From positions 608,001 to 672,000 of the forward strand of contig OZ244905.1 in assembly GCA_965221695.1 (NCBI GenBank): DNA of 64,000 bases, in the 5' to 3' direction. This stretch comes from Gammaproteobacteria bacterium. Its GTDB lineage: Bacteria > Pseudomonadota > Gammaproteobacteria > Eutrophobiales > Eutrophobiaceae. The notes under the pieces are model-generated. The model was not told the origin of the DNA. It saw only the letters and a program-made list of their open reading frames with translations, and ran no database searches. The position numbers were made by a program, and so were the translations under genes. Positions 1 through 43,311 of the stretch are shown here, piece after piece. Position 1 is the first letter of the stretch, and each line of letters opens with the position of its first letter.

Positions 1-494
1 GTGTTTGCTTCCAGCAGACCGGTGAGTCCCAGGCCGAAACCTCCCAGGCCCCAGCAGATCATGCTCGGGTCCCACCACTGGCAACCGTACATGTTGCCGA
101 ATCTGAGAGACAGTTCCGCATGAGCAAAGGTTCCGTAATCGTTGGCCAGCACACCATGTCCGGGCCATAGCCCCACAGATTCCCGTCCAACGGCCTGGAA
201 ACCCTGGACAATACAATCCAGGGCATCATCCCAGCTCACCACGTCCCAGTTGCCGCTCGCGCGCTTGCTGCGCATCATGGGATAGAGGATACGCCGGGGA
301 TTGTCTATTATCTCGCCGGCTGCCTGTCCGCGCGCGCAAAGGAAGCCGCGGCTATCCGGGTTCTGCTTATCGCCGGTGATTTTAACCAGCCGGTTGCCGG
401 CAACGGTGACCTGCATCCCACACAGCGTAGGATGACAATTCATGGGGCACATGGTGCGGACTGTGCGTGATTCCTGAGGCTGTAGAGGTGTCAT
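1..494 (-). CDS. Molybdopterin-dependent oxidoreductase, N-terminal part (runs off the window start)
   Basis: Manual translation from ATG at 494: MTPLQPQESRTVRTMCPMNCHPTLCGMQVTVAGNRLVKITGDKQNPDSRGFLCARG...NPRRILYPM...VSWDDALD, the Fe4S4-binding N-terminus of the DMSO reductase family. Not in the ORF track because it is truncated. Confidence 0.85.
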   Translation of the reverse strand, partial: MTPLQPQESRTVRTMCPMNCHPTLCGMQVTVAGNRLVKITGDKQNPDSRGFLCARGQAAGEIIDNPRRILYPMMRSKRASGNWDVVSWDDALDCIVQGFQAVGRESVGLWPGHGVLANDYGTFAHAELSLRFGNMYGCQWWDPSMICWGLGGFGLGLTGLLEAN

Positions 495-532
495 AGGAAG
501 CGTTCAGTCAGCCGGGATATATGCCGTGTCGG

Positions 533-1165
533 TCACTTTACCCGCAGGTGGTAAGCGAACTGAGGGCAGATGTGCCCTTTTACCTCGGTTTCGGATTCTC
601 CCAACAGTTTCACCTCACACCAGGGATTGAAAAGCGCTTCGACCTCATCCCGGAATACCCGGAATGGTGGCGGGTTGATCTGGCCATCCTGATAAGTCAG
701 GGTGATGAGCAAGGCTTGCATGTCAGGTTGCAACAAGGTGTTCATGCTTGCGGCATATTGCGCGCGCCGGTCATGAGGCAAAGCAATAAGCGACGCGCGG
801 TCGTATACCGCAACCACATCGGACAGCCGCCCTGGCTCCAAAGAAAAGAAATCGCCGCACAGAAATTCCAACTGTTCCGAGCGATACCTGATAAACGGGC
901 CATCCCGGTCACGCTCCGCGTCCAAGCCATTTTCTTCGATAAACGACCGGGCGGCAATCTCGCTCAGTTCCACGCCAAGCACATGGTACCCCTGAGCCAT
1001 CAACCAGATCATGTCCTTGGACTTTCCACACAGGGGCACAAAGACCTTGCTACCCGCAGGAATGCTCAGGCCGGGCCATCTGTTGACCAACACGGGGTTG
1101 AAATCCTGCTGGTGGAAGGCCAGTTCATTCGCTTCCCACTTCTCATGCCAGAAATGATGTTCCAT
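533..1165 (-). CDS. tpm: Thiopurine S-methyltransferase
   Basis: FWHEKW, VFVPLCGKSKD, GVELSEIA, YDRASLIALP motifs of the TPMT family. Confidence 0.92.
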   Translation of the reverse strand: MEHHFWHEKWEANELAFHQQDFNPVLVNRWPGLSIPAGSKVFVPLCGKSKDMIWLMAQGYHVLGVELSEIAARSFIEENGLDAERDRDGPFIRYRSEQLEFLCGDFFSLEPGRLSDVVAVYDRASLIALPHDRRAQYAASMNTLLQPDMQALLITLTYQDGQINPPPFRVFRDEVEALFNPWCEVKLLGESETEVKGHICPQFAYHLRVK

Positions 1166-1419
1166 GCCAGCGGATTATATCAGACAGAATTGGGATGCCA
1201 ATAAAATGATGCTGCTCTTGTAGCGATGTTGATCAATCAGCATAAACCCCTCAAGATCAGGGCGCTACTGCACATGTATGTAACTACTGTGTCGCTTGAT
1301 GAGCGACCCCTTCTCTCACTGAATTCCCGTTTGCATTACCGGAATGGTATGCAAGGCGATTCCATGAACATCGCAAGAGAACCACTCGCACAACAGCCGG
1401 AGTCCAGTCAAAAGGAAAA

Positions 1420-2475
1420 TTAGCCAGGCGCTTTAACTTTGTGGTAGAACTGGATTATTGCCCCATCCGGGGTCTTGATAGAGAAGATATCGACTTGGCC
1501 CAGCAGTTCCATATCGGCGCGACTTATAGGGCGATGTATAGGCCAGCCCCGGCTTTTAATTTCTGTCTCTGCTACGGCAACATCCGCCACTTCGAATCGG
1601 ACCGCTAGAATGCCCAGGTTCGGCGCATCACACCGGCCCGAGTAATCCTGGCCATCAAGTCCTCTTATCTCGATCATTTCCATTCGCCCGAACTCGCCCG
1701 GTGTCGGGTATACGATGCTGGCCTGGTATGGGATTGTTGTGGTCAGGTTAATGGGCAATCCAAGTGGGGTGGGAGTAGGCGTCTTGGCTGTGTAGGGTTC
1801 GCCATGGTAGAAGGTGGCAAAACCCAGGACTCTGGTGAAGAAGTCATAGGAGATATCCCGATCGCGCACCATCTGCATGATGTTAAACGGGCGTGTCATG
1901 CGCTCGAAAGGCGGGATGTCTGACGGCAACGGCGGCGAAAGCCGCTCATATCCTTGCACCTGTATCCCGTCCGGTCCCCGGAATATAGTAATGTTTAGCT
2001 TCGATGCGCCGAATTCCAGGTAGGTAATAGGCGTTTCTGTCCACCAACCAATGGCGATGGCATCATCATAGACGGACTGCATGTCCTTCATGCGCGCCAT
2101 CAGGCTGAAGTAGCAGCCGGTATCCCAGGCCCTGGCTCCCGGTCTCATGGGCGCGCGCCGCCCGGCACGGTCGAATCGTATCAACCGGAGGTTCGCCTGG
2201 TTCTCGCCTGGCCTGCCAAGGATCAACATCTCCCCGGTTGCCTCCGCCGCCAGTCCCCAGGTAGCAATTTCGGAAGCGGAAACGCTCCCATGCGCCTTGT
2301 TCTCATAGCCGCCAATTTCATGGAAAAATCGAGCGCTTGCCCGCAAATCGGTAACACTGAGCACGGCCTCCTGCCAGGGCTTGTTAGTGATCGGCGTCAC
2401 TTCACTCGCTGCGCCGCCCGCGCCGATAACAAGGCTGCATACGACACACAACATTACTGATATTAGCGTTTTCAC
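1420..2475 (-). CDS. Exported VOC/glyoxalase-fold protein
   Basis: N-terminal signal peptide; repeated VOC modules (LSVTDLRASARFF, FRGPDG, KTPDGAIIQF). Confidence 0.7.
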   Translation of the reverse strand: MKTLISVMLCVVCSLVIGAGGAASEVTPITNKPWQEAVLSVTDLRASARFFHEIGGYENKAHGSVSASEIATWGLAAEATGEMLILGRPGENQANLRLIRFDRAGRRAPMRPGARAWDTGCYFSLMARMKDMQSVYDDAIAIGWWTETPITYLEFGASKLNITIFRGPDGIQVQGYERLSPPLPSDIPPFERMTRPFNIMQMVRDRDISYDFFTRVLGFATFYHGEPYTAKTPTPTPLGLPINLTTTIPYQASIVYPTPGEFGRMEMIEIRGLDGQDYSGRCDAPNLGILAVRFEVADVAVAETEIKSRGWPIHRPISRADMELLGQVDIFSIKTPDGAIIQFYHKVKAPG

Positions 2476-3109: not shown

Positions 3110-4336
3110 ATGGCTGCCAGATTGCATATTCCTACCGCGCCGTACCGCCCCGGAGAAGAACCGGATTTCAAGGCTATCGCCCTGACCAAGCCCGGCGCGC
3201 TGGACTGTCCCGACGAGCTGGCGCCCGCTAACGAGATCAGCGCCCTGTCGTTCGGTCTGATCCGCATCCTTGATGAGAATAATCAAGCTGTGGGGCCTTG
3301 GCGCCCTGAACTGTCCGCCGATATGTTGCGTGACGGCTTGCGCCATATGCTGCTGACGCGCCTGTATGATGATCGTATGTTCAGGATGCAGCGCCAGGGG
3401 AAATTGTCTTTCTACCTGAAATGTACTGGCGAGGAAGCTGTCTCGATCGCGCAGTGTATGGCGCTGGATAAGGATGACATGCTGTTCCCTACTTATCGGC
3501 AGCAGGGCCTGCTCATCGCGCGCGGCTATCCCCTTCAGGAGATGATGTGCCAGTGTCTGTCCAATGCCGGCGACAAACTGCAGGGGCGCCAGTTGCCGGT
3601 CTTGTACAGTTCGGACGCCTATAACTTTTTCACCATCTCCGGCAACCTGGGCACGCAGTTTTCTCAGGCTGTCGGCTGGGCCATGGCCGCTGAATACAAA
3701 AAGACCAGCGATATTGCCGCGGCCTGGGTAGGCGAAGGTACCAGCGCTGAAGCAGATTTCCATTATGCTCTTACCTTCAGCGCCGTATACCAGGCGCCGG
3801 TGGTATTAAATGTAGTGAATAACCAATGGGCTATCTCTACCAACCAGAATGTCGCCGGTGGCGAACAAAACCCGTTTGCCGCCCGCGCTATCGGCTACGG
3901 CATCCCCGGCCTACGCGTGGATGGCAATGACTTTCTGGCAGTGTTCGCCGCTACCCGCTGGGCCGCGCGCAGGGCGCGCGCAGGTGGCGGCCCAACCCTG
4001 ATCGAATTGTATACCTATCGCGCCGGAGCACATTCCAGCAGCGATGACCCGGGCAGGTATCGGCCTGTCGATGAGTGGGAGAACTGGCCTCTGGGCGATC
4101 CCATTAAGCGGTTAAAACAGTACTTAATCGCCTCGAATGAGTGGTCGGAAACAGATCACGAACAACTTAAGCAGGAACTGGAGGAGATAGTGAGCGCTAC
4201 CTGGAAGGAAGCGCTGGCGTTGGGCGATCTGAATGAAGGCCCGCGCCCGCCTGATTCGGCCATGTTCGAACATGTCTATAAGGAAATGCCGCCGCACCTT
4301 ATCGAACAACGCCGTCAGTTTGAGGCAATGAAATGA
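3110..4336 (+). CDS. bkdA1: Branched-chain 2-oxoacid dehydrogenase E1 alpha
   Basis: RQGKLSFY, TPP motif GEG...VNNQWAIS, YRAGAHSSSDDP. Confidence 0.93.
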   Translation: MAARLHIPTAPYRPGEEPDFKAIALTKPGALDCPDELAPANEISALSFGLIRILDENNQAVGPWRPELSADMLRDGLRHMLLTRLYDDRMFRMQRQGKLSFYLKCTGEEAVSIAQCMALDKDDMLFPTYRQQGLLIARGYPLQEMMCQCLSNAGDKLQGRQLPVLYSSDAYNFFTISGNLGTQFSQAVGWAMAAEYKKTSDIAAAWVGEGTSAEADFHYALTFSAVYQAPVVLNVVNNQWAISTNQNVAGGEQNPFAARAIGYGIPGLRVDGNDFLAVFAATRWAARRARAGGGPTLIELYTYRAGAHSSSDDPGRYRPVDEWENWPLGDPIKRLKQYLIASNEWSETDHEQLKQELEEIVSATWKEALALGDLNEGPRPPDSAMFEHVYKEMPPHLIEQRRQFEAMK

Positions 4337-5418
4337 ACACGCAATCAAGTCCAGGACCACATCAGGCAACACAGTCCGAGGCAGCTAGGGCAGCGCGTCA
4401 GGACACGCGCTCGATGTCCATGATCCAAGCCCTGAATTCGGCGATGGACGTGATGCTGGAACGCGACCCAAAAGTGATCATTTTCGGCGAAGATGTGGGC
4501 TATTTCGGTGGCGTATTCCGCTGCACCGAAGGTCTGCAACAGAAGCACGGAGAGGATCGCGTGTTCGACACGCCTATTGCCGAGGGAGGAATTGTTGCTA
4601 CGGCCATTGGCATGGGTGTGAATGGTCTGCGGCCACTGGTCGAGATCCAGTTTGCTGATTACATCTATCCCGCTTTCGATCAGATTGCCAGCGAACTCGC
4701 CCGCCTGCGTTACCGTAGCGCCGGCCAGTTCTGGTCGCCGGTGACCATCCGCACACCCTGTGGAGGCGGCATACGTGGCGGGCAGACTCATTCACAAACG
4801 CCGGAGGCGCTGTTTGCTCATGTTTGCGGTCTGAAGACGGTCATGCCTTCCAATCCCTATGACGCCAAAGGTCTGCTGATCAGCGCAATTGAGGATGATG
4901 ACCCGGTCATCTTTTTTGAACCTAAGCGCCTCTACAACGGTCCGTTCGACGGTGACCCCGACAAACCATCCAGGAGCTGGGGCGACCACGACAAGGGCCA
5001 GGTCCCAACTGGCCACTACCGTGTGGCGCTGGGCCAGGCGGAAATCGCGCGCGCCGGGAACGATGTGACCGTTCTCGCCTACGGCACAATGGTGCACGTG
5101 GCGCTGGCGGCAGCGGCGCAGACGGGCATCGATGCCGAGGTGATCGATGTGCGCTCCCTGATGCCATTGGATGTAGATGCTCTCTGCGCTTCTGTGTGCC
5201 GCACTGGGCGTTGTATGATCGTGCATGAAGCCACGCGCCACTGTGGCTACGGCGCGGAGCTCTCGGCGCAGATGCAGGAACATTGCTTCTGGAACCTGGA
5301 AGCGCCCATTGAGCGGGTGACGGGGTGGGACACGCCCTACCCGCACGCGCAGGAATGGGCTTACTTCCCGGGGCAAGCGCGGGTAGCCGCGGCGTTGCAA
5401 CGGGTCATGGGCGCCTGA
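4333..5418 (+). CDS. bkdA2: Branched-chain 2-oxoacid dehydrogenase E1 beta
   Basis: FGEDVGYFGGVFR, EIQFADY, GGQTHSQ, GWDTPYP; ATGA overlap with bkdA1. Confidence 0.93.
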   Translation: MNTQSSPGPHQATQSEAARAARQDTRSMSMIQALNSAMDVMLERDPKVIIFGEDVGYFGGVFRCTEGLQQKHGEDRVFDTPIAEGGIVATAIGMGVNGLRPLVEIQFADYIYPAFDQIASELARLRYRSAGQFWSPVTIRTPCGGGIRGGQTHSQTPEALFAHVCGLKTVMPSNPYDAKGLLISAIEDDDPVIFFEPKRLYNGPFDGDPDKPSRSWGDHDKGQVPTGHYRVALGQAEIARAGNDVTVLAYGTMVHVALAAAAQTGIDAEVIDVRSLMPLDVDALCASVCRTGRCMIVHEATRHCGYGAELSAQMQEHCFWNLEAPIERVTGWDTPYPHAQEWAYFPGQARVAAALQRVMGA

Positions 5419-7987: not shown

Positions 7988-8617
7988 TCAAAGCGATTTA
8001 AGATAACGCCAGGCACGCTTCCCCCGTGACTGTTTACGCAGCCACAGCAGGTCCTCCGGCAAGTCAATATCCCGACCAAGGCCGGCGGAACGGGCTATAT
8101 GAATGGGAACCCGGCGTGTTGCCGCTTCCTTGCGAAATTCTTCGAAACTGTTCTCACCGTACATCAAATTCATCGCAAGAGGCGGCGTAAACACCAGGCC
8201 GTTGGTGCCACCATCGTTGGCAGCGGGGCACAAGGTAACGCCATCCTTGTGCTCCCGGTCCAGGTAAACCAGGTCCCGGTCTTCGATCTCCGGCACGTCG
8301 GCCGGGATGATGAGTACCTTGCCGGCGCTGTTGTCGCTGATATGCTCTATTCCTCTCAAGACATCCGCGGCATAGCCGCTGTCGGTTCCCGTGTTGAGTA
8401 TGTCAGCGGTTTTTTCCCGGGCCTGTGCGATCACATCGGCATCGCAACTGATCACCGTAACACCAGTCACCGCGGCGGATGCAGCCAGGGTGTCCAGTAT
8501 GTCTTCCAGCATGCACAAGCTGAGTTGCCGGCGCTGCGGCGATGTCAGAACAGTTGCCAGGCGCAACTTGGAATGCCGCAACCGCTTTACCGGGATCAGC
8601 GCCCACATAGTAAGCAA
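7988..8617 (-). CDS. cofC: 2-phospho-L-lactate/PEP guanylyltransferase (F420 biosynthesis)
   Basis: ALIPVKRL..SKLRL, IIPADVP, DGGTNGL, YGENSF, DIDLPEDL. Confidence 0.88.
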   Translation of the reverse strand: MLTMWALIPVKRLRHSKLRLATVLTSPQRRQLSLCMLEDILDTLAASAAVTGVTVISCDADVIAQAREKTADILNTGTDSGYAADVLRGIEHISDNSAGKVLIIPADVPEIEDRDLVYLDREHKDGVTLCPAANDGGTNGLVFTPPLAMNLMYGENSFEEFRKEAATRRVPIHIARSAGLGRDIDLPEDLLWLRKQSRGKRAWRYLKSL

Positions 8618-8633
8618 CCTCTGATCTCAAATA

Positions 8634-9293
8634 TCAATCGATACCGGTGATGCGAATACCGGAATGGCTGGTCTTGTAGGTCTTGTTGATATGAATAAGA
8701 AGGCTGGTCAGGGCCTCGGCGGCCGCTGCATTGGCAAGTTTACCGGCATTGATGGCGCGGCAACCGCTGTCTTCCACCAGTTGCATCACCTCCCGGCGGG
8801 TTTCCGGGTCGTCACAGGTGACGAGGATATCGCAGTCGATTTCAACATCCTGTTCCAGCAGGTTGGCGGCCACATTGTGATAGGCCGCGGCGACCCGCGC
8901 CTTGTCTCCCACCGTTTCGCGGGTGATAACCGCAACGCTCCCCTGCGCCGGCAACTGGACAACAGCCACCTTCGGCGGCATCAGCGGTACCGTGGTATCT
9001 ATCAGGATCTGCCCGGACAGGCCCGACCTGATACTCTCAAGAGTGGCTGCGTGGGCAGCAAACGGCACGGTCAGCGCCACGACCTCAGCCTGTTGCGTCG
9101 CACTGAGATTGTCCATGCCGGCAATAGCCCCTGCACCGGGCTTCTTATTCAGTTCAGCCGCCGCATTCTGCGCCTTCTCCGCCACCCGGGAGCCGATGAT
9201 TACCTCGTGTCCGGCCCTGGCCCAACGCCAGGCAAGGCCGTAACCAAGATTACCGGTACCACCCAGAATCGCTATTTTCCGTTTATTTTCCAT
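8634..9293 (-). CDS. npdG: NADPH-dependent F420 reductase
   Basis: ILGGTGNLGYGLAWRW, IIGSR, DTTVPL, AAYHNV, C-terminal LLIHINKTYK..SGIRITG. Confidence 0.9.
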   Translation of the reverse strand: MENKRKIAILGGTGNLGYGLAWRWARAGHEVIIGSRVAEKAQNAAAELNKKPGAGAIAGMDNLSATQQAEVVALTVPFAAHAATLESIRSGLSGQILIDTTVPLMPPKVAVVQLPAQGSVAVITRETVGDKARVAAAYHNVAANLLEQDVEIDCDILVTCDDPETRREVMQLVEDSGCRAINAGKLANAAAAEALTSLLIHINKTYKTSHSGIRITGID

Positions 9294-33700: not shown

Positions 33701-35026
33701 TCAATACCTCGCGAGAAGGTAGAGCCAGTAAATGGTTTTATCCGCGCTCTGGGCGGCATTGCGAGCGAGGTTAAGCGCATTCCGGTCGGCATTATAATCC
33801 GCATATTTAAAACCCACGGTGTAATGTTTGTAAAAGTTTTTTTCCACGAGTATATCCAGTTCATTGCCGTAGTCGTAAGAGTCCTTGTCCGTTTTCAGCA
33901 TATGATAAGATAACGCCAGGTCTGTGTTATAGATCGACGTAGTATAGTTAATATAGGTATCTTCAATGCCATCTCCAGGTGTAATCACGAAACGATCGGC
34001 CCACCCCTGGAATGCGTGATTAGTGCCAAGTATGGTGACAAACCTGTCGGCGCCGCCATCGCCGCCGAGCAATTCATAATTGGCAGTCAGAGAAAAGGAT
34101 TTAACTGGCCCCTGTCCGCCGCTCCAGGCGACGCCGCCGGCAGTCAGCAGATAATCGGCATTGATATGCTTCTTGTTATTGGCCTGGTCGCGCTGGTTTG
34201 CATACTCAAATGTATACAATATCCGCCAGGACTCATTTACCCGCCAGGCGCCTGACAGGCGTATGCCCAGCGTTCCGACGGAAAAAGCGGCAGCATTGTC
34301 AAAATCCAGCCAATAACCATAAGCCTCAATTTTTGCCTTGACAGATTTGTCATACAGGACGTTCAACAAATGTGAATTACTGTCAAATTTGTCCAGCGGG
34401 TCGGGAGCGTCGTTACCGAATATACGATTGACCTGCCAAGTGTAGCCGTATCTGATCTTGAGATGCTCAACCGGTGTCATCTCAACGGTCAGCGCGTCAT
34501 GGGTTTGCCAGTTCTGCCGCCATAATACCGTGCCCAGATAACGATGCAGCGGCGCTTTGCGCCAGGTGATGATTTGTCGTCCCACTTTCATACGCGTAGC
34601 CGGCAAACCGTTAAAACTCAGCCAGGCTTGATTGAGTTCCGTGCCGTTCGGGTCGGCGACAACGGCATAATCAGTTTTGTCATTGGAGCCGTTGTTAAAA
34701 TCATCGGGGCCGAGTTCACTGATATGTTCGAACTCAATGCCGGCATTAAAACCATGGAAAGACGCTGTATCGTAACCCAGTACCAACCGGAGTGTAGAGG
34801 CTTCGGCTGTCTTCAATGGGTTACTGCCGGCAGCTCGCCCATCATCCTCTACCCGCTCAAAACGATAGCGTCCGACAAAGCGAAACTTGCCTCCTAATAT
34901 TGCATCTTCTAAACGCTGCGTTGGGCGCTGCGCCTGAATGTCCGCATTGACCCGATGAGAAGCGCAGGAAAAGATCAGCGCCAAACCGATAAAACCACAG
35001 CCCAGATGGGCATATACATCTCTCAT
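33701..35026 (-). CDS. Alginate export family (AlgE-like) outer-membrane beta-barrel
   Basis: RYRFERV, VADPNGTELNQAW, KVGRQ, WRQNWQTHD, LGTNHAFQGWADRF; aromatic C-terminus. Confidence 0.8.
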   Translation of the reverse strand: MRDVYAHLGCGFIGLALIFSCASHRVNADIQAQRPTQRLEDAILGGKFRFVGRYRFERVEDDGRAAGSNPLKTAEASTLRLVLGYDTASFHGFNAGIEFEHISELGPDDFNNGSNDKTDYAVVADPNGTELNQAWLSFNGLPATRMKVGRQIITWRKAPLHRYLGTVLWRQNWQTHDALTVEMTPVEHLKIRYGYTWQVNRIFGNDAPDPLDKFDSNSHLLNVLYDKSVKAKIEAYGYWLDFDNAAAFSVGTLGIRLSGAWRVNESWRILYTFEYANQRDQANNKKHINADYLLTAGGVAWSGGQGPVKSFSLTANYELLGGDGGADRFVTILGTNHAFQGWADRFVITPGDGIEDTYINYTTSIYNTDLALSYHMLKTDKDSYDYGNELDILVEKNFYKHYTVGFKYADYNADRNALNLARNAAQSADKTIYWLYLLARY

Positions 35027-35139
35027 AGGTTTTCTCCTCGCAAAACCGGCGCGTTATGTAAAGGGCCTCCGCTTCAGCCGGAAGCTCCTGCAGCGCAGGT
35101 ATGTGTCATCGAAGATAATCTCCAATAAGTTGCGATTCC

Positions 35140-35153
35140 TTGATACCGGTCAA
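35140..35153. promoter_or_regulatory. FNR/DNR box upstream of the TonB receptor
   Basis: TTGAT-ACCG-GTCAA, with a CATAAT -10-like hexamer at 35175-35180, spacing typical of a class II activated promoter. Confidence 0.8.
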
Positions 35154-35190
35154 GTTATTCAACAATTCGGCAACCATAATATCAGCCACC

Positions 35191-37356
35191 ATGAAACGCT
35201 CTTTACTGCTTGCCTGTTTCGTCCTCTCCATCTTATGGGGGTTCTCTCCCGGCGCCACAGCCAAGGATTTTCTCGAAGAAATCGTTGTGGTCGGCAGCAA
35301 AACCGAACGGCCGCGTTGGACCGTCTCCGGCCAGGTGGAAACATTCACCCGGGAACGACTGGACTGGCAACAAGTCGCTGAGTTCAGCGATGTCAGCCGT
35401 TACGCGCCAGCATTGGAAGCAGATTACAGTGGCAGCCGCTTCGGCTTTACCGGCCTTTCAATTCGCGGCGTGGGAGATAACCGAGTGGCTCTGGAACTGG
35501 ACGGCTCACCATTGCCACAACAGCTTGACGTTGGCAGTTTTGCGGATAACGGCCGCCTGGCGCTTGACCCAGCAACCATCAAGCGCATCGAAATCCTGCG
35601 CGGTCCCGCATCAGCGCTGTATGGTTCGGACGCGATTGGCGGCGTCGTGATCATTGACACTGTTGACGGCGCTGACCTGGTTGATGCTGGCCGACGCTAC
35701 TACTGTGGCGCAAACGGCGGCTATTACAGCGCCGATAATTCAAAACATGGCCAAGCCACTTGCGCCTGGGCGAACGATACCGACAGCGCCATGCTCTCTG
35801 TGAGCCGGCGCGCCGGCCATGCATTAGAGAACCGGGCCAGGGATGTGGAAAGTGACCGTGTCAAGTTCAACCAATGGCAATGGTTTGCAAAATGGAGTCA
35901 TGCATTTAATCACGGCGGCAACTTGCGCTTCCTGGTCGATTATTTCAGCCGTAACACAAGCAGCGACCTGCGCGCGCAACTGGGATATGAGCGTTTTGCC
36001 AGTACCACAAAACTACAAGGCGACGATGAACAGCAGCGTTACCGGATAGCGTTGCAATATGACCTGCCCGCCTGGCGCTGGTCAGATCAGCTCAGGCTGC
36101 TAGCCTATTACCAGCATAACGATACCGAACAACAGACCGAACAATACCGTCGCAGCTTTGGCGCCCCGGTATTCCTGCAACGGAATTTCTTCCTCACTGA
36201 GCAAAACCTGGGCGGCGAAATTAAATCCAGGCATGAGTTCAGTGTCGCCGGGCTTGATCATGTGTTGCTTGCGGGTATGGAATGGGATCGGCAACGGCTG
36301 CTCGAAAGACGCAATGCCAGCCAGACAAATCGGATAAGCGGACAGGTGACAAACACTGTTCTGGGAGAAACCTTTCCCCTGCGAGACATGCCAAAATCCA
36401 CGACTGACAAAGTGGGAATCTTCATCCAGAATGAGATCCTGTGGAAAAACCTGACCCTGACGCCGGCGCTTCGCTGGGACTATTTCAAACTTGATTCCGA
36501 TACCGACTCTTATGTTACCGACAAGACCTTGCTGACCGACCTGAGCAGCGCTGACCTGACCGCGCGTCTGGGTCTGGTATGGCGATTGAGCGACGATTTT
36601 TCTGTTTATGCCCATTACGCGGAAGGATTCCGAGCGCCACCGGCGGAAGACGTCAACCTGTTTCTTGATATTGCTCTGTTCAACTATCGCTCGTTGCCAA
36701 ACCCCGATTTAAAACCGGAACGTTCGCGCAACCTTGAAATCGGTTTTCTACTGCGCTGGCACGGGTTGTCAGTAGAAGCCGGCGCATACCACTCACGCTA
36801 TCGCAACTTTATCGAAACTCGCGCGTTAATCGGCCCTGACCCGGACACGGGAGGATTGTTATTTCAGTCCCGAAACCTTGAAGATTCGACCATTTATGGC
36901 TTTGAAGCCAACTTGAGCCAATCGCTTGAGTCGCTACGCCTGATGCATCGGGGATGGCACATCGATGCCGGCCTGCACTGGGCCCGGGGGGAAAATGACG
37001 TGACCTCATTGCCACTAAATTCGGTCAATCCGCTAAAAGCGGTGATCGGGCTGCGTCGGGAAATAGCATCGCAGCCTTTTGCAGCCAGCTTGCGAGTGGT
37101 CCATTATGGCAAACAACATCGTACTGATTTTAGCGCCGGCGATTTTTTTGTGCCTTCTTCCGCAACAGTAGCAGACCTGACGCTCTGCTGGAAACAATCC
37201 GAGCGTCTGCGCTGGTTTCTCGGCATATATAACCTGACGAATAAACGTTATCAGCGTTATACCGAAACGCGCAGGCTGAAACCGGATGACCCAAGACTGG
37301 AAATTCTGACCCAACCGGGGATTAACGCGGCGCTGACCCTGCACATCGATTTTTAA
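35191..37356 (+). CDS. TonB-dependent receptor, heme/hemoglobin class
   Basis: TonB box LEEIVVVG, plug IEILRGPASALYGSDAIGGV, FRAP and NPDL motifs, terminal F; start re-assigned to ATG 35191 (signal peptide MKRSLLLAC). Confidence 0.88.
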   Translation: MKRSLLLACFVLSILWGFSPGATAKDFLEEIVVVGSKTERPRWTVSGQVETFTRERLDWQQVAEFSDVSRYAPALEADYSGSRFGFTGLSIRGVGDNRVALELDGSPLPQQLDVGSFADNGRLALDPATIKRIEILRGPASALYGSDAIGGVVIIDTVDGADLVDAGRRYYCGANGGYYSADNSKHGQATCAWANDTDSAMLSVSRRAGHALENRARDVESDRVKFNQWQWFAKWSHAFNHGGNLRFLVDYFSRNTSSDLRAQLGYERFASTTKLQGDDEQQRYRIALQYDLPAWRWSDQLRLLAYYQHNDTEQQTEQYRRSFGAPVFLQRNFFLTEQNLGGEIKSRHEFSVAGLDHVLLAGMEWDRQRLLERRNASQTNRISGQVTNTVLGETFPLRDMPKSTTDKVGIFIQNEILWKNLTLTPALRWDYFKLDSDTDSYVTDKTLLTDLSSADLTARLGLVWRLSDDFSVYAHYAEGFRAPPAEDVNLFLDIALFNYRSLPNPDLKPERSRNLEIGFLLRWHGLSVEAGAYHSRYRNFIETRALIGPDPDTGGLLFQSRNLEDSTIYGFEANLSQSLESLRLMHRGWHIDAGLHWARGENDVTSLPLNSVNPLKAVIGLRREIASQPFAASLRVVHYGKQHRTDFSAGDFFVPSSATVADLTLCWKQSERLRWFLGIYNLTNKRYQRYTETRRLKPDDPRLEILTQPGINAALTLHIDF

Positions 37357-37371
37357 TAAAAGCGCCACGAA

Positions 37372-37385
37372 TTGATCAGTGTCAA
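37372..37385. promoter_or_regulatory. FNR/DNR box upstream of nirS
   Basis: TTGAT-CAGT-GTCAA about 60 bp before the nirS ATG; RBS GAGGAG at 37434. Confidence 0.85.
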
Positions 37386-37431
37386 GAGACTACAGCCAAT
37401 AACCTGCTATTTTTTCGCTGTGTTCTGTTAG

Positions 37432-39510
<2,079 letters not shown>

Positions 39511-39564
39511 CTCGGATTATTCTCCGAGGCTCGCCTCAGAACAGGTGTAGAAGTTACAACTAAG

Positions 39565-39647
39565 GGAAGCTCTGACAAGTCCATCCAGGACTTGTCAGAG
39601 AGCGGCACAGTTTCTGTGTCGCAGAACCTTTGATTTAATCAGAGGTT
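39565..39647 (-). mobile_element. Internally deleted, inverted copy of the GGAANCTCTGA MITE
   Basis: GGAAGCTCTGACAAGTCCATCCAGGACTTGTCAGAG is the reverse complement of the right end of the 54973 element; ends in GAACCTTTGATTTAATCAGAGGTT. Confidence 0.75.
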
Positions 39648-39702
39648 GGTTAATCGATGTGTTCAATCCGCCGCCAGTCGGCCTCAGTTGTGATGGTGTA
39701 AA

Positions 39703-40431
39703 ATGTCTTATCCAGATGTAACAGTTGCGCATAATGCCGACAAAAAAGTTTTCCCATTTAACCCCTTGGAAAAAATGTTCAAACAGGACTTGTTCCAGGA
39801 CCTGAACGCCGCACAGCGTTCGCTGATCCGCTCTTCAATTCGCACTATCCGTCTGAAGCAGGGTCAGACCCTGTTTCAACAGGGAATGCCGGCCAGGTCA
39901 TTCTATTTTATTGTCAATGGCTGGATAACGTTATTCCGTCTGCATGAAAGCGGCGCCACCACCGTGATACATACTTTTGGCGCTGGGGATATGTTCGGCG
40001 AGGTCGCGGCGCTGGCCATCAACAGCTATCCTGTTACGGCTGATGCGGCAACAGATACGATCGTGTATTCAATACCGGCTGCCGCTTATCGTGCACTGAT
40101 AGAACGGGATGCCCGCCTCGCGATACGCGTTATCAACAGCCTGGAACAACGCGTCCGCATCTTGATCAGCGAGTTTGAACGTTGCCAGCAAGACTCCGGC
40201 GTAAACCGGCTGGCGTCGTTCCTGGTCGAATTGTCTCGCCGCTCAAACTCAAACAATGGTCACTACATGCTGCCGTTCAGCAAACAAACGCTGGCAGGCA
40301 TGTTGCATATCCAACCGGAAACTCTGTCACGCGCGTTCTCGGTACTGCGTAAATACGGCGTAAAAAGCTACCGTAATGGCCGCGTGCACATTCCGGATAT
40401 GCGCGCTCTGAACACCCTCCTCCGCGAATAA
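39703..40431 (+). CDS. Crp/Fnr family regulator, DNR/NnrR type
   Basis: cNMP-like domain (LFQQG, GDMFGEVA), recognition helix PETLSR, no Fe-S cysteine cluster. Confidence 0.88.
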   Translation: MSYPDVTVAHNADKKVFPFNPLEKMFKQDLFQDLNAAQRSLIRSSIRTIRLKQGQTLFQQGMPARSFYFIVNGWITLFRLHESGATTVIHTFGAGDMFGEVAALAINSYPVTADAATDTIVYSIPAAAYRALIERDARLAIRVINSLEQRVRILISEFERCQQDSGVNRLASFLVELSRRSNSNNGHYMLPFSKQTLAGMLHIQPETLSRAFSVLRKYGVKSYRNGRVHIPDMRALNTLLRE

Positions 40432-40537: not shown

Positions 40538-40592
40538 AGAAAGCAGAGATTCCTGTTGTTTGCTCCGACTGACCTCACACTTTCGTTGCAGT

Positions 40593-41576
40593 TCAATCCA
40601 GGTCCAGTTTGAACAACTCAATGGCATTGGAGCGTCCTATCTTCACGCGCTCCTCCTCGGTGATTACGCTGGTGGCGTCGTACCAGTCCGCCGCATCCTC
40701 CATGCGTTCAAACGGATAGTCGGCGGAGAAGTAGAGCCTGTCCTTACCCAGCACATCCAGGGCGCAGCGGAACGCCGGATCGTCAAACAAGCCGCTAACG
40801 GTGATATGGAAATGCTCCCGGAAGTAATCGCCCAGCGGGCGTTTGCCGCGGTAGCCGCGTCGGGAAAATCGCATGCGCGCATCAAGACGCCACAGGGCAA
40901 ACGGGATATTCTCTCCCATATGACCCACGGCTATCTTCAGGTTGGGAAAATCATCGAACACGCCGGAACCGCACAGGCGCAACGCGTGGATCGAGGTTTC
41001 CACCGCGAAGCCCCAGGGAGCGCTCATCAACCAGGGGTGCCCATCATAGTTTCTGGCCTGGGCGGGAATCTGCATACGCGGGTGCAGGTAAAAAGGCACG
41101 TCCAGGTCCGATACCGCCGCCCAGAAGTCACGGTACTCCGGTATGTCGTAGTATATCGCCGTGTCCGGTTCGTCTTTTTGGGTAAACCCGTTTACCAGCG
41201 CGCCCTTGAAACCGAGTTCATTGACACACCGCTCCACCTCCGCAGCCGCGGCAGCGGGGTCTTGCATGGGCAGCGCAGCCATGCCGGCATAACGGTTCGG
41301 GTGTTGGGTCACCGCGTCGGCAATACGGTTGTTCGCCTTGCGCGCAAGCTCGATGGCTTGCTCAGTATCCAGAATCGCCTGCAGGCCCGGCGCATTGAGA
41401 GACAGCAGCGCCAGTTCGATTCCGGTCTTATCCATTGCCGCGAGGCGCATGTCGTCGACATCCAGAAGTTCCAGGGTAAACTCGTCCCATCTACCCGAAT
41501 CGCCGGCAAATGCTTTGGCATTGCCGACGGTTTCTTCGATGGCCAAGTGTTCTTCAAATGCGATTTTGCCTTTCAT
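40593..41576 (-). CDS. Amidohydrolase-2 non-oxidative decarboxylase, gamma-resorcylate/2,3-dihydroxybenzoate type
   Basis: MKGKIAFEEH, LSLNAPG, FYLHPR, YDGHPWL, GHMGE, FSADYPFE; 327 aa like characterised gamma-resorcylate decarboxylases. Confidence 0.88.
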   Translation of the reverse strand: MKGKIAFEEHLAIEETVGNAKAFAGDSGRWDEFTLELLDVDDMRLAAMDKTGIELALLSLNAPGLQAILDTEQAIELARKANNRIADAVTQHPNRYAGMAALPMQDPAAAAAEVERCVNELGFKGALVNGFTQKDEPDTAIYYDIPEYRDFWAAVSDLDVPFYLHPRMQIPAQARNYDGHPWLMSAPWGFAVETSIHALRLCGSGVFDDFPNLKIAVGHMGENIPFALWRLDARMRFSRRGYRGKRPLGDYFREHFHITVSGLFDDPAFRCALDVLGKDRLYFSADYPFERMEDAADWYDATSVITEEERVKIGRSNAIELFKLDLD

Positions 41577-41610
41577 GATACTCTTATCTCTCAGTGTTAT
41601 CGGTTTATGA

Positions 41611-43311
41611 TCAGTGTTGCGAACGCAGTTCCGGCGGGAGCCATTCGTAGTGGGAAAAACGATTGGTCCAGCCGGTTTCGTATCCGGGTAAAGGAATGAC
41701 GCCGTTATCGGCTACATAGGCATCCCAAAGCGCTTGCATTTCAGCCAGTTTCTGAGGGTGATGCTCCGCCAAGTCAATGCTTTCTGCCGGATCCTCGGCC
41801 AGGTTGAACAGCGACCAGCGCCCCTCCGGTCCCCACGGCGCATTCATCCAGGTTATCTTCCAGTCACCCTGCACCACGCCCCTGCGGCCCATCATCACGT
41901 ACGCAAAATAGTCCTCCGGCGGGTGCGCCTGCGTGCTTGAACCGTGCAGGAACGCGCGCATCGACCTCCCTCTCATCGGCGGCATTGGCTCGCCATTGTC
42001 GGCAACGCCCGGATGCTCTACGCCGGCATAATCCAGCAAGGTAACAGGCAGGTCAAGGACGTTTGCTGGGGCGGACGACACCTCTCCTGCTTCAATACGG
42101 CCGGGAAAACGGAAAATGGCCGGTGTGCGAATCCCCCCTTCGGTAGGAAACCCCTTAAAATAACGCAACGGGGCGCTGCCGACATGCGCCCAGCCTGCCC
42201 CCAGCCAGGAATAGGAACCGGGCCTCCCCAGGTTCTCCTGGCTGACATCAAAGCGGCCCTCGGCCCAGTCAAAACCCGGTTGCCCATAAAAATCCAACGG
42301 ATTGCCCCCTTCCGCGCCGTTGTCGGAGAGGAAGATCACCAGCGTGTTGTCCGCCAGTCCCTCCCGCTCCAGGTATTCGAGGACTCTGCCAATATGAAAA
42401 TCCATGGCTTCCGTCATCGCCGCGTACACTTGCATGCGGCGGACTTCGAGGCTGCGCATGGTTTCATCCAGGTCATTCCATACCGGCCAGGCCGGATGCT
42501 GTTCTGCCGCGACCTGCTGTTCGCCAATCAGCCCGGTGTTACGCATCCGTTCGATGCGCGCGGCGCGCACGGCATCATAACCCTGTTCGTATACTCCGGC
42601 ATAGCGCTCGATATATTCATCCGGCGCGTGCAGTGGGTAATGTGGCGCAGTAAATGGCAAGTAGGCGAAAAAAGGCTTGCCGTCGGACCGATGACGGTCA
42701 ATATACTCCATAATCTTGTCGGCATAGTTCCTGGAGGAGTAAAAGTCATCGGGCAACTCAATCTCACGACCGTTTTCCACGTAAGTCACTGAGTCCAGTT
42801 CCAGCAATGACGGCGCCCTGTTGAAATGGGAACCGCTACCCTCCACCAGCACGAAAGATTCCTCGAACCCGCGCCGGTCGGGCCACAGGACCGGGTTGCC
42901 ATGCCCGCCCATGTCCCATTTGCCGGCGATATAGGTATGGTAGCCATCGCCGTGTAACACGTTGGCGATGGTCGTCACCCGGTCTGTGAGGTAGGTCTCA
43001 TAACCCGGTTGTCCGCGTATCGCCGGCGTAAACTCCCCGGCCATGGTGCCGTAGCCGGCAGGGTGGCTGTCGGCGCCGGTGAGCAGCATCGCGCGGGTGG
43101 GTGAGCACAACATGTGCACCCGGAAATGGGTCATCAGCATGCCCTGGGCCGCGAGCCGGTCGATATTGGGCGTGCGGATCTCACTGCCCATCACTCCGAT
43201 GTCCGAATACCCCATATCATCCGCGAGGATGACCAGGAAGTTGGGGCGTTCGGGTTGTTTGCCGGTACAGGCGACCAGCAGACAGGCGGCACATAGCAAC
43301 GACAACCGCAT
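41611..43311 (-). CDS. Arylsulfatase (AtsA-like), predicted lipoprotein
   Basis: PNFLVILADDMG, CSPTRAMLLTG, GKWDMG, APHYPL, SDNG; lipobox LVAC; start at ATG 43311 (43356 possible). Confidence 0.92.
   Translation of the reverse strand: MRLSLLCAACLLVACTGKQPERPNFLVILADDMGYSDIGVMGSEIRTPNIDRLAAQGMLMTHFRVHMLCSPTRAMLLTGADSHPAGYGTMAGEFTPAIRGQPGYETYLTDRVTTIANVLHGDGYHTYIAGKWDMGGHGNPVLWPDRRGFEESFVLVEGSGSHFNRAPSLLELDSVTYVENGREIELPDDFYSSRNYADKIMEYIDRHRSDGKPFFAYLPFTAPHYPLHAPDEYIERYAGVYEQGYDAVRAARIERMRNTGLIGEQQVAAEQHPAWPVWNDLDETMRSLEVRRMQVYAAMTEAMDFHIGRVLEYLEREGLADNTLVIFLSDNGAEGGNPLDFYGQPGFDWAEGRFDVSQENLGRPGSYSWLGAGWAHVGSAPLRYFKGFPTEGGIRTPAIFRFPGRIEAGEVSSAPANVLDLPVTLLDYAGVEHPGVADNGEPMPPMRGRSMRAFLHGSSTQAHPPEDYFAYVMMGRRGVVQGDWKITWMNAPWGPEGRWSLFNLAEDPAESIDLAEHHPQKLAEMQALWDAYVADNGVIPLPGYETGWTNRFSHYEWLPPELRSQH

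Follow-up and report, generated by a model that had tools for sequence, protein, structure and literature searches.

The window analysed here is a 64,000-nucleotide stretch of a gammaproteobacterial genome (contig OZ244905.1, positions 608,001 to 672,000 of the forward strand), and the subject of this report is a four-gene module within it, in which nirS, the gene for the cytochrome cd1 nitrite reductase NirS, stands directly behind a gene for a TonB-dependent outer-membrane receptor of the heme class. Two enzymes commit fixed nitrogen to loss as gas, of which NirS is one, and nirS is a standard marker for denitrifiers; the cofactor of NirS, heme d1, occurs to our knowledge in no other enzyme and needs a dedicated multi-gene pathway. 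A sequence-only reading of the window had pointed to a receptor with FRAP and NPDL motifs lying 90 bp upstream of nirS in the same orientation, to a shared box in front of both genes and to the lack of d1 biosynthesis genes, and had suggested that the receptor supplies a cofactor, potentially scavenged heme d1. The observation is confirmed here, and its heme d1 interpretation is supported by each computational check that it proposed, namely a genome-wide search for d1 genes, a receptor tree with an examination of linkage to nirS, and the association with missing d1 synthesis.

The genome of the window (G000; the letters G and L followed by a number denote the genomes and loci compared in the analysis) is a single contig of 3,539,060 bases and is 96.85% complete. 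The module consists of a barrel gene on the minus strand, followed on the plus strand by the receptor gene, nirS and a gene for a Crp/Fnr regulator, with two boxes in the intergenic regions:

33701..35026, minus strand: outer-membrane barrel protein, 441 amino acids (aa), AlgE-like by predicted fold, divergent from the receptor gene
35140..35153, plus strand: FNR/DNR-type box 1, TTGATACCGGTCAA, between the barrel gene and the receptor gene
35191..37356, plus strand: TonB-dependent receptor, heme/hemoglobin class, 721 aa, with Plug and barrel domains; member of a nirS-linked subfamily
37372..37385, plus strand: FNR/DNR-type box 2, TTGATCAGTGTCAA, upstream of nirS
37447..39510, plus strand: NirS, cytochrome cd1 nitrite reductase, 687 aa, with Cytochrom_D1 and two cytochrome c domains
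39703..40431, plus strand: Crp/Fnr-family regulator, DNR/NnrR-like, 242 aa, with cNMP_binding and HTH_Crp_2 domains

The open reading frames (ORFs) listed by program run from 33701-35026(-), 35140-37356(+), 37432-39510(+) and 39703-40431(+). The starts given above were read from the sequence, at ATG 35191 for the receptor, where a signal peptide begins (MKRSLLL...), and at ATG 37447 for nirS, leaving 90 bp between the receptor stop at 37356 and the nirS start.

NirS and the missing heme d1 genes

NirS matches Cytochrom_D1 (PF02239) with 493 bits and also PF13442, and has two cytochrome c domains in all, with CxxCH motifs at residues 39 and 191. Residues 150-687 match the Pseudomonas aeruginosa enzyme (1nir group, E 7e-263), while the extra N-terminal cytochrome c domain (residues ~22-135; 37447-37860) finds its match in the cytochrome c domain at the C-terminus of the three-domain copper nitrite reductases (3ziy group, E 5e-28). 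In P. aeruginosa numbering, Tyr10, Arg156, His182, Arg198, Arg225, His327, His369 and Arg372 are conserved, and so are the c-heme CxxCH motif and Met88; we take Tyr10, Arg156, Arg198, Arg225 and Arg372 to be d1-site residues of the P. aeruginosa enzyme. Section 20 of PMC8756737 gives His182 as the proximal d1 ligand, His327 and His369 as the distal residues, and His51 and Met88 as the ligands of the c-heme. Judged by these residues, the protein of the window plainly reads as an intact NirS built for heme d1. Use of another cofactor was considered and ruled out, because every d1-site residue checked is conserved.

The genes for making this cofactor are a different matter. The whole genome holds one D1-domain gene, which is nirS itself; the PF02239 search also returned one match below the cut-off, at 19.6 bits, and found neither nirF nor nirN in the 3.54 Mb. 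For NirJ, the best genome match to TIGR04051 reaches 82 bits against a cut-off of 515, and the siroheme-decarboxylase domain of the NirD/L/G/H type (PF17805) has no match in the genome; nirM and nirC were not searched. The sequence-only claim that no nirMCFDLGHJEN gene occurs in the 64 kb thus extends to the whole genome for nirF, nirN, nirJ and nirDLGH, and has to be softened for nirE: one CysG-type methyltransferase of 464 aa is encoded elsewhere in the genome, so that a nirE-like activity is possible. On this gene content siroheme can probably be made, but no later step towards heme d1.

The receptor subfamily, its linkage to nirS and the shared boxes

The receptor carries the Plug (PF07715, 77 bits) and TonB_dep_Rec_b-barrel (PF00593, 195 bits) domains and passes two curated heme-family models, TIGR01785 (TonB-hemin; 324.2 bits against a cut-off of 316.85) and TIGR01786 (336.9 bits against 323.75); the nearest solved structure is PhuR (8the, E 3e-68). 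Its nirS-linked relatives in three other genomes (G008, G242 and G423) fall under the TIGR01785 cut-off at 283-308 bits, and by such scores the nirS-linked subfamily is borderline for this model. FRAP at residue 480 and NPDL at residue 504 lie in loop 7, where FRAP and NPNL are the named boxes of heme receptors, and the subfamily as delimited by the tree described below keeps them closely, with R481, P483, N504 and L507 in all 151 rows, F480 in 148 and P505 in 146.

The axial ligands tell another story. Those of the known receptors, which we take to be His124 and Tyr519 in PhuR and His86 and His420 in ShuA, were mapped onto the receptor by alignment; for the PhuR chain, numbering shifted by 13 falls on a His and a Tyr. 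At the plug positions the receptor has Gly121 (for PhuR His124) and Ser116 (for ShuA His86), and at the loop positions Asn489 (for PhuR Tyr519) and a Phe/Leu (for ShuA His420). Throughout the subfamily there is no His in the axial-ligand columns and Asn489 is invariant (151 of 151 rows); the generic heme-receptor clade is mixed in these columns, with Tyr in 41 of 128. In addition, the subfamily has a loop-7 signature of its own, consisting of Pro484, Asp487, Leu492, Ile/Leu494, Phe497, Arg500 and Ala501, positions at which generic receptors differ. The missing PhuR and ShuA ligands and this signature together would fit a different ligand.

The plainest alternative to cofactor import is ordinary uptake of heme b or iron that has come under anaerobic control and covers the iron or heme demand of denitrification, which needs many cytochromes, with no link to d1. 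This is what the curated family scores, the FRAP and NPDL motifs and PhuR as the nearest solved relative would suggest. Nevertheless, it is unlikely. By TIGR01785 the nirS-linked protein is the only heme-class receptor of the genome (324 bits, the runner-up scoring 157). Apart from the lost ligand residues, the setting is not that of a heme receptor, as these are usually Fur-controlled and linked to heme utilisation genes: no heme transport genes of the ATP-binding cassette (ABC) type adjoin the receptor, whose neighbours are nirS and the barrel gene, and the genome contains neither the HemS/PhuS family (PF05171) nor heme oxygenase (PF01126). A ferrochelatase is present, and heme b is thus home-made. 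Upstream of the receptor no Fur-box-like site was found, the best match having 9 mismatches in 19, which is the mode for random windows, when compared with an enterobacterial/pseudomonad consensus that may not suit this organism. TonB itself has five matches in the window genome and was found in all six module genomes searched.

Relatives of the receptor were gathered by receptor similarity using two alignments, giving 160 loci, and the counts that follow hold among the matches listed. These alignment-based scans returned one close ortholog (L095) and a tier of 27-37% identity; a locus scan with the single receptor protein as query found no relative among the genome contigs searched. nirS lies beside the receptor in 25 of the 160 loci, at a distance of 16-518 bp in 24 of them and of 2741 bp in one, and its placement varies: downstream on the same strand in 16, upstream on the same strand in two and on the opposite strand in seven. 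Receptor identity to the window protein is 32.6-36.8% in the linked loci, and nirS is found in none of the 119 loci with identity below 32.6%, 84 of which are flanked by 3 kb or more on either side. Of the 25 receptor-linked nirS genes, 23 include the extra cytochrome c domain (aligned from residue 40 or earlier of the window NirS), the other two being cut by contig ends; going by these alignments, a two-cytochrome NirS is common in gammaproteobacterial receptor-linked loci.

The receptor tree has 279 rows, 128 of them generic and 151 on the nirS-linked side, and the branch between the two has a support of 100 and a length of 0.22. The nirS-linked side holds all 25 linked receptors, including that of the window, along with one unlinked receptor (L102), eight with short flanks and 117 proteins without gene context. 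On the generic side none is linked: 43 have short flanks, and the remaining 85, whose flanks are 3 kb or longer on each side, do not adjoin nirS. When IQ-TREE was run on a 63-row subset, two changes of linked state sufficed. Two unlinked loci whose receptors fall within the identity range of the linked ones, L022 (34.6%) and L036 (33.1%), are not exceptions, both lying on the generic side.

The close ortholog (L095; 62% identity, short flanks) is divergent from a homolog of NirN (346-1764(-); 6rtd, E 2e-86), which is another periplasmic d1-binding protein. This neighbour hints that some lineages import dihydro-heme d1. On its other side, the L095 receptor is followed by a DUF454 gene (4188-4556) and an IS200-type transposase (4761-5246).

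That nirS is a relic or independent of d1, and that the receptor merely hitch-hikes beside it in one horizontally spread island, is very improbable. The presence of the module in only two of 23 genomes of the genus would fit recent transfer, and the transposase next to the L095 receptor could be taken the same way. By composition no clear island signature was found (GC 0.49-0.55 in the module against 0.52-0.59 in the flanks). A relic is hard to reconcile with an intact NirS that keeps all the checked d1-site residues at E 7e-263 to its P. aeruginosa counterpart, and the receptors have diverged to 31-71% identity yet stay by nirS in varied orientations, which argues for long-term selection for the linkage rather than for one recent island.

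The shared boxes bear on regulation. The sequence TTGATNNNNGTCAA, a TTGAT-N4-GTCAA box, occurs exactly twice in the 64-kb window, at the positions 35140 and 37372 where the sequence-only reading had placed it, and there are no others of that pattern; 0.10 occurrences are expected, and one of 100 shuffles reached two. The centre of box 1 lies ~44 nt before the receptor ATG and ~120 nt before the ATG of the barrel gene, and that of box 2 ~68 nt before the nirS ATG, which is preceded by a GAGGAG Shine-Dalgarno sequence. The hexamer CATAAT at 35175-35180 fits a putative -10 element of the receptor gene; a scan for sigma-70 promoters and terminators returned no more than shuffles did, and nothing in either intergenic region. 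In the 3.54 Mb of the genome there are 15 TTGAT-N4-[AG]TCAA sites, and those placed as in promoters precede the receptor gene, nirS, a quinol-type NO reductase (qNOR), an acyl-CoA dehydrogenase, a 173-aa protein and an IclR regulator. The qNOR (761 aa, PF22085 and COX1; G000:C1:1764987-1767272(-)) has its box, TTGATGAAAGTCAA, at 1767332, 66 nt before its ATG, a spacing like that at nirS. Across other lineages, 11 of the 24 linked loci that could be evaluated have a box with no more than one mismatch before the receptor, compared with 84 of 2000 background windows of the same loci. Such a box precedes nirS in nine of 26, and in 16 of 28 one gene of the pair or both have it.

A few further observations concern the same set of genes. 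The box TTGATTGAAGTCAA occurs in identical form at G000:C1:1612278 and 1656415, one copy being 45 nt before the 173-aa ORF, which has no Pfam family. A fourth heme-copper oxidase gene (G000:C1:2793086-2794375(-), a 491-aa frame with COX1 at 160.7 bits) is present beside those of the aa3, cbb3 and qNOR types. The NosZ profile PF18764 has no match in the genome, but the control was likewise without any match.

The regulator encoded downstream of nirS has the cNMP_binding (PF00027) and HTH_Crp_2 (PF13545) domains and matches the DNR structure 3dkw (E 7.5e-22). It had been described as Cys-less, which holds for the N-terminal Cys cluster of the FNR type but not for the protein as a whole, where one Cys (C161) is present. 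Regulators of the DNR/NnrR branch sense NO by means of heme and bind sites of the TTGAT-N4-ATCAA class; the recognition helix of this protein, PETLSRAF, contains E-x2-SR, which we take to be a recognition motif. The protein passes no NCBIfam model (the best is FtrB, with 89.7 bits against a cut-off of 211) and, by its sequence, resembles DNR/NnrR.

Genomes without d1 synthesis and the rest of the module

In a sample of 23 genomes of the genus, nirS was found only in G000 and G008. Each of the two has one D1 gene, with the receptor (71% identity) directly upstream of nirS, and the barrel gene and the regulator are also present; two relatives with classical nirS-nirF-nirN sets (G024 and G034) have no such receptor. 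Two broader samples were scored, one of the class (400 genomes at least 90% complete, with one further genome left unscored) and one of the phylum (401 genomes), in both of which related genomes are not independent of each other. With at most four D1 candidates per genome scored, 68 of the 400 class genomes have a D1 match, and four (G000, G242, G375 and G423) have a single one, their nirS frames being long (692-764 aa). In the phylum sample the corresponding numbers are 55 of 401 and four (G000, G695, G751 and G753), all four belonging to the class of the window genome.

Besides G000, these samples thus yield six single-D1 genomes, and all six are without NirJ and NirDLGH, both of which were fully scored. 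In four of the six (G242, G423, G751 and G753) a receptor of the subfamily lies 0.2-2.4 kb from nirS. Specifically, that of G751 is 311 bp away; G242 has two such receptors ~13 kb apart (C5:12514-14601 and 27269-29344, with 34% and 36% identity), of which the second adjoins nirS; and in G753, where the nirS-nirT pair is more distant (45% identity), the receptor precedes it by 2.3 kb. The G753 locus (L190) has some features of its own: its nirS-type gene is preceded by a hemerythrin gene (8131-8697(-)) and followed by a gene (10683-12509(+)) in which a NirT/NapC tetraheme cytochrome is joined to an EB_dh heme-binding domain; 3 kb downstream there is a second TonB receptor.

The 64 genomes of the class sample with at least two D1 matches give the opposite picture. 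No receptor match at E<=1e-50 was found in 63 of them, the remaining one (G418) has a match of 31% identity that is 2.8 Mb from nirS, and in none of the 64 does the receptor lie near nirS; in the phylum sample the receptor was tested in only three of the multi-D1 genomes. This result also tells against simple heme or iron uptake, since genomes with nirS and d1 genes have an equal cytochrome demand and yet keep no such receptor near nirS. Eight further genomes (G041-G048), reached through the receptor, are all without NirJ and NirDLGH, and seven of them have a single D1 match; the eighth, G042, has three partial D1 matches, of which one of 184 bits may be NirN-like as in L095. NirJ and NirDLGH are present in the control genomes G024, G034, G106, G219, G659, G675 and G716. 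Altogether, the 14 genomes with a receptor near nirS lack both (14 of 14), which is the association with missing d1 synthesis that the sequence-only reading had led one to expect.

The two single-D1 genomes that remain, G375 and G695, lend some substance to a different alternative, according to which an unrecognised pathway makes heme d1 and the receptor takes up some other compound that is useful under denitrifying conditions, for example siroheme or a corrinoid. Both keep nirS without d1 genes or the receptor, and with CysG present in the window genome siroheme, a d1 precursor, would be available. Genes for a Rieske oxygenase, an FAD monooxygenase, NnrS and a cytochrome b561 flank the nirS of G375 (L180, C14:1-17000), as does a barrel gene. 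However, the module of the window has only the barrel, the receptor and the regulator with nirS, and hence offers no candidate genes for such a pathway, no homolog of any dedicated d1 step searched was found, and the tight adjacency of the receptor to nirS or nirN in many lineages would be left unexplained. A hidden pathway is therefore improbable as well. The nirS of G695 (L188, C25) is an orphan whose neighbours encode a DNA ligase, an HD-domain protein and an amylase.

The 441-aa barrel protein (33701-35026(-)) has no NCBIfam match, and Pfam gives none either, even at E<=1. The sequence starts with a signal peptide and ends in an aromatic residue, and the AlphaFold model of the protein (pLDDT 75.7) has 18 strands. 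Foldseek with this model finds the AlgE, Occ and MOMP barrels at E 1e-10 and template-modelling scores of 0.53-0.60 (0.53-0.56 for the AlgE chains), and in neighbouring clusters of the ESM Atlas PF13372 (Alginate_exp) is found in 13-96% of the members. Homologs with 33-39% identity adjoin nirS in 10 of the 25 receptor-linked loci, and another one is part of a classical nir cluster with d1 genes and no receptor (G219, L182:9362-10600(-)). The latter rules out the barrel as a partner of the receptor: it goes with nirS. It is probably an anion channel, perhaps for nitrite, which is a guess, and it may represent a general, undescribed outer-membrane channel associated with nirS.

The genes flanking the module are unrelated to it and encode a TPR protein, an amidohydrolase, a sulfatase and a second TonB receptor. 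The ORF at 40560-41699(+), of 379 aa, is probably not a gene, having no family and an odd, Arg-rich sequence, and it is antisense to an Amidohydro_2 gene at 40593-41576(-).

Proposed cofactor import and its relation to known systems

Taken together, these findings make it probable, if far from certain, that heme d1, or a late precursor of it, enters the periplasm from outside through the receptor and that NirS is loaded there. On balance, the module would then give the bacterium a working cd1 nitrite reductase although it makes no heme d1 of its own. What we infer is the nature of the substrate (heme d1, one of its precursors or some other tetrapyrrole), and likewise the induction, the loading of the cofactor and the cross-feeding; the process might run as follows. 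Under anoxia or in the presence of NO, the neighbouring DNR-like regulator (or another factor of the FNR family) would bind the TTGAT-N4-GTCAA boxes, and the receptor, nirS and the distant qNOR would be switched on together. NirS would be exported and its two c-hemes attached in the periplasm. The receptor, energised by TonB, would carry free heme d1 or a late precursor (e.g. dihydro-heme d1), released by d1-producing denitrifiers, over the outer membrane, and the semi-apo NirS would take up d1 in the periplasm and become active there. With loading in the periplasm no inner-membrane transporter would be needed, which fits the absent ABC genes. The fused extra cytochrome c domain would probably replace a separate electron donor, and the AlgE-like barrel would probably admit nitrite, so that the whole might constitute a portable, self-contained cassette. 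According to PMC3694632, NirS is periplasmic and its maturation involves NirN and NirF; the module would have to manage without both.

Several points weigh against this import of heme d1. The main reason for restraint is that G375 and G695, with nirS and no d1 genes, have no heme-class receptor either (in G375 the best TIGR01785 score is 173 bits with all 33 candidates scored, and in G695 all 37 were scored): either their nirS is idle, or there is another route to d1, which might also serve the window genome. We know of no demonstration so far of free heme d1 in the environment. For any single genome, the missing genes may reside on an unassembled plasmid, and a count of one D1 gene may be too low in the samples, four candidates having been scored of nine in G423 and of five in G242. 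L102 is a receptor of the subfamily with flanks of 3.7 and 5.2 kb and no nirS nearby, and 117 of the 151 rows of the subfamily carry no gene context. As G041-G048 were found via the receptor, they add consistency rather than an independent association. With regard to the boxes, 12 of the 28 linked loci have none (at most one mismatch) before either gene, and box 1, if used as a class II site, would leave a receptor leader of ~3 nt and may instead serve the divergent barrel gene, or both.

Comparison with known systems places the receptor as a divergent member of the heme-receptor family that would work most like the cofactor piracy of PqqU or BtuB. It shares with PhuR, ShuA, HemR and HasR the Plug, the 22-strand barrel, FRAP, NP(D/N)L and the TonB box region. 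Unlike these four, it adjoins nirS and not heme utilisation or ABC genes, has an FNR/DNR-type box and no Fur-like site upstream, and belongs to a separate clade; from PhuR and ShuA it is further set apart by other residues at the axial-ligand positions. PqqU (YncD) is a TonB-dependent importer of pyrroloquinoline quinone (PQQ) in bacteria that have a periplasmic apo-enzyme but no PQQ synthesis, and structure 9c4o is titled 'Pyrroloquinoline quinone transporter'. The proposed likeness is that of an outer-membrane gate supplying a ready cofactor to a periplasmic enzyme in a non-producer, with no inner-membrane step. The window receptor differs in family (38 bits on NF041535 against a cut-off of 1200) and presumed cofactor, and in that its gene is linked to, and apparently co-regulated with, that of the enzyme. 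BtuB represents corrinoid salvage, in which bacteria that do not make a complex modified tetrapyrrole take it up through a TonB-dependent receptor; the window receptor scores 93 bits against BtuB cut-offs of 836 and 600, and whereas cobalamin must reach the cytoplasm, d1 would stay in the periplasm. A third likeness is to NosA/OprC, a TonB-dependent receptor for copper on which the N2O reductase of Pseudomonas stutzeri depends, as another outer-membrane protein of this kind supplying a periplasmic denitrification enzyme; its cargo is a metal ion, whereas that proposed here is an organic cofactor (58 bits on TIGR01778 against a cut-off of 472).

With classical nir clusters (nirS and nirMCFDLGHJEN) the module shares a NirS core with an identical d1 site, a DNR-type regulator and a co-occurring NO reductase. 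It differs from them in the absence of nirF, nirN, nirJ and nirDLGH from the genome, in the extra cytochrome c domain and in having a receptor gene in the place of biosynthetic genes. In section 19 of PMC8756737, C1-C2-NirS with an added N-terminal cytochrome c domain is described as limited to Chloroflexi. The window NirS resembles this form, as far as that section describes it, in the additional domain and in having no other nir genes nearby, which is a likeness of architecture and does not imply homology of the extra domains; unlike it, the two-cytochrome NirS of the window type occurs in gammaproteobacterial loci. A full-text literature search found no description of d1 uptake, of d1 auxotrophy or of a receptor-nirS linkage, most subscription journals being outside its reach.

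The chances look even that heme d1 is a traded cofactor, and that widespread gammaproteobacterial d1 auxotrophs carry a portable nitrite-reductase cassette, made up of a dedicated heme d1 receptor, a NirS with its own electron-donor domain, a nitrite channel and a regulator, which is active only where producers leak d1. The module makes d1 auxotrophy and cross-feeding directly testable, and, if the reading is true, it would offer a simple system, lacking NirF and NirN, for the long-open question of how d1 is delivered to periplasmic NirS. There would then be a class of nirS carriers that depends on its neighbours, which would change the reading of nirS surveys and of the annotation of metagenome-assembled genomes. 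Environmental nirS counts would overstate the number of autonomous denitrifiers, and part of denitrification would rest on cofactor cross-feeding of the kind known for B12 and PQQ. Among the shared goods, which include these two cofactors, heme and siderophores, heme d1 would then have a place.

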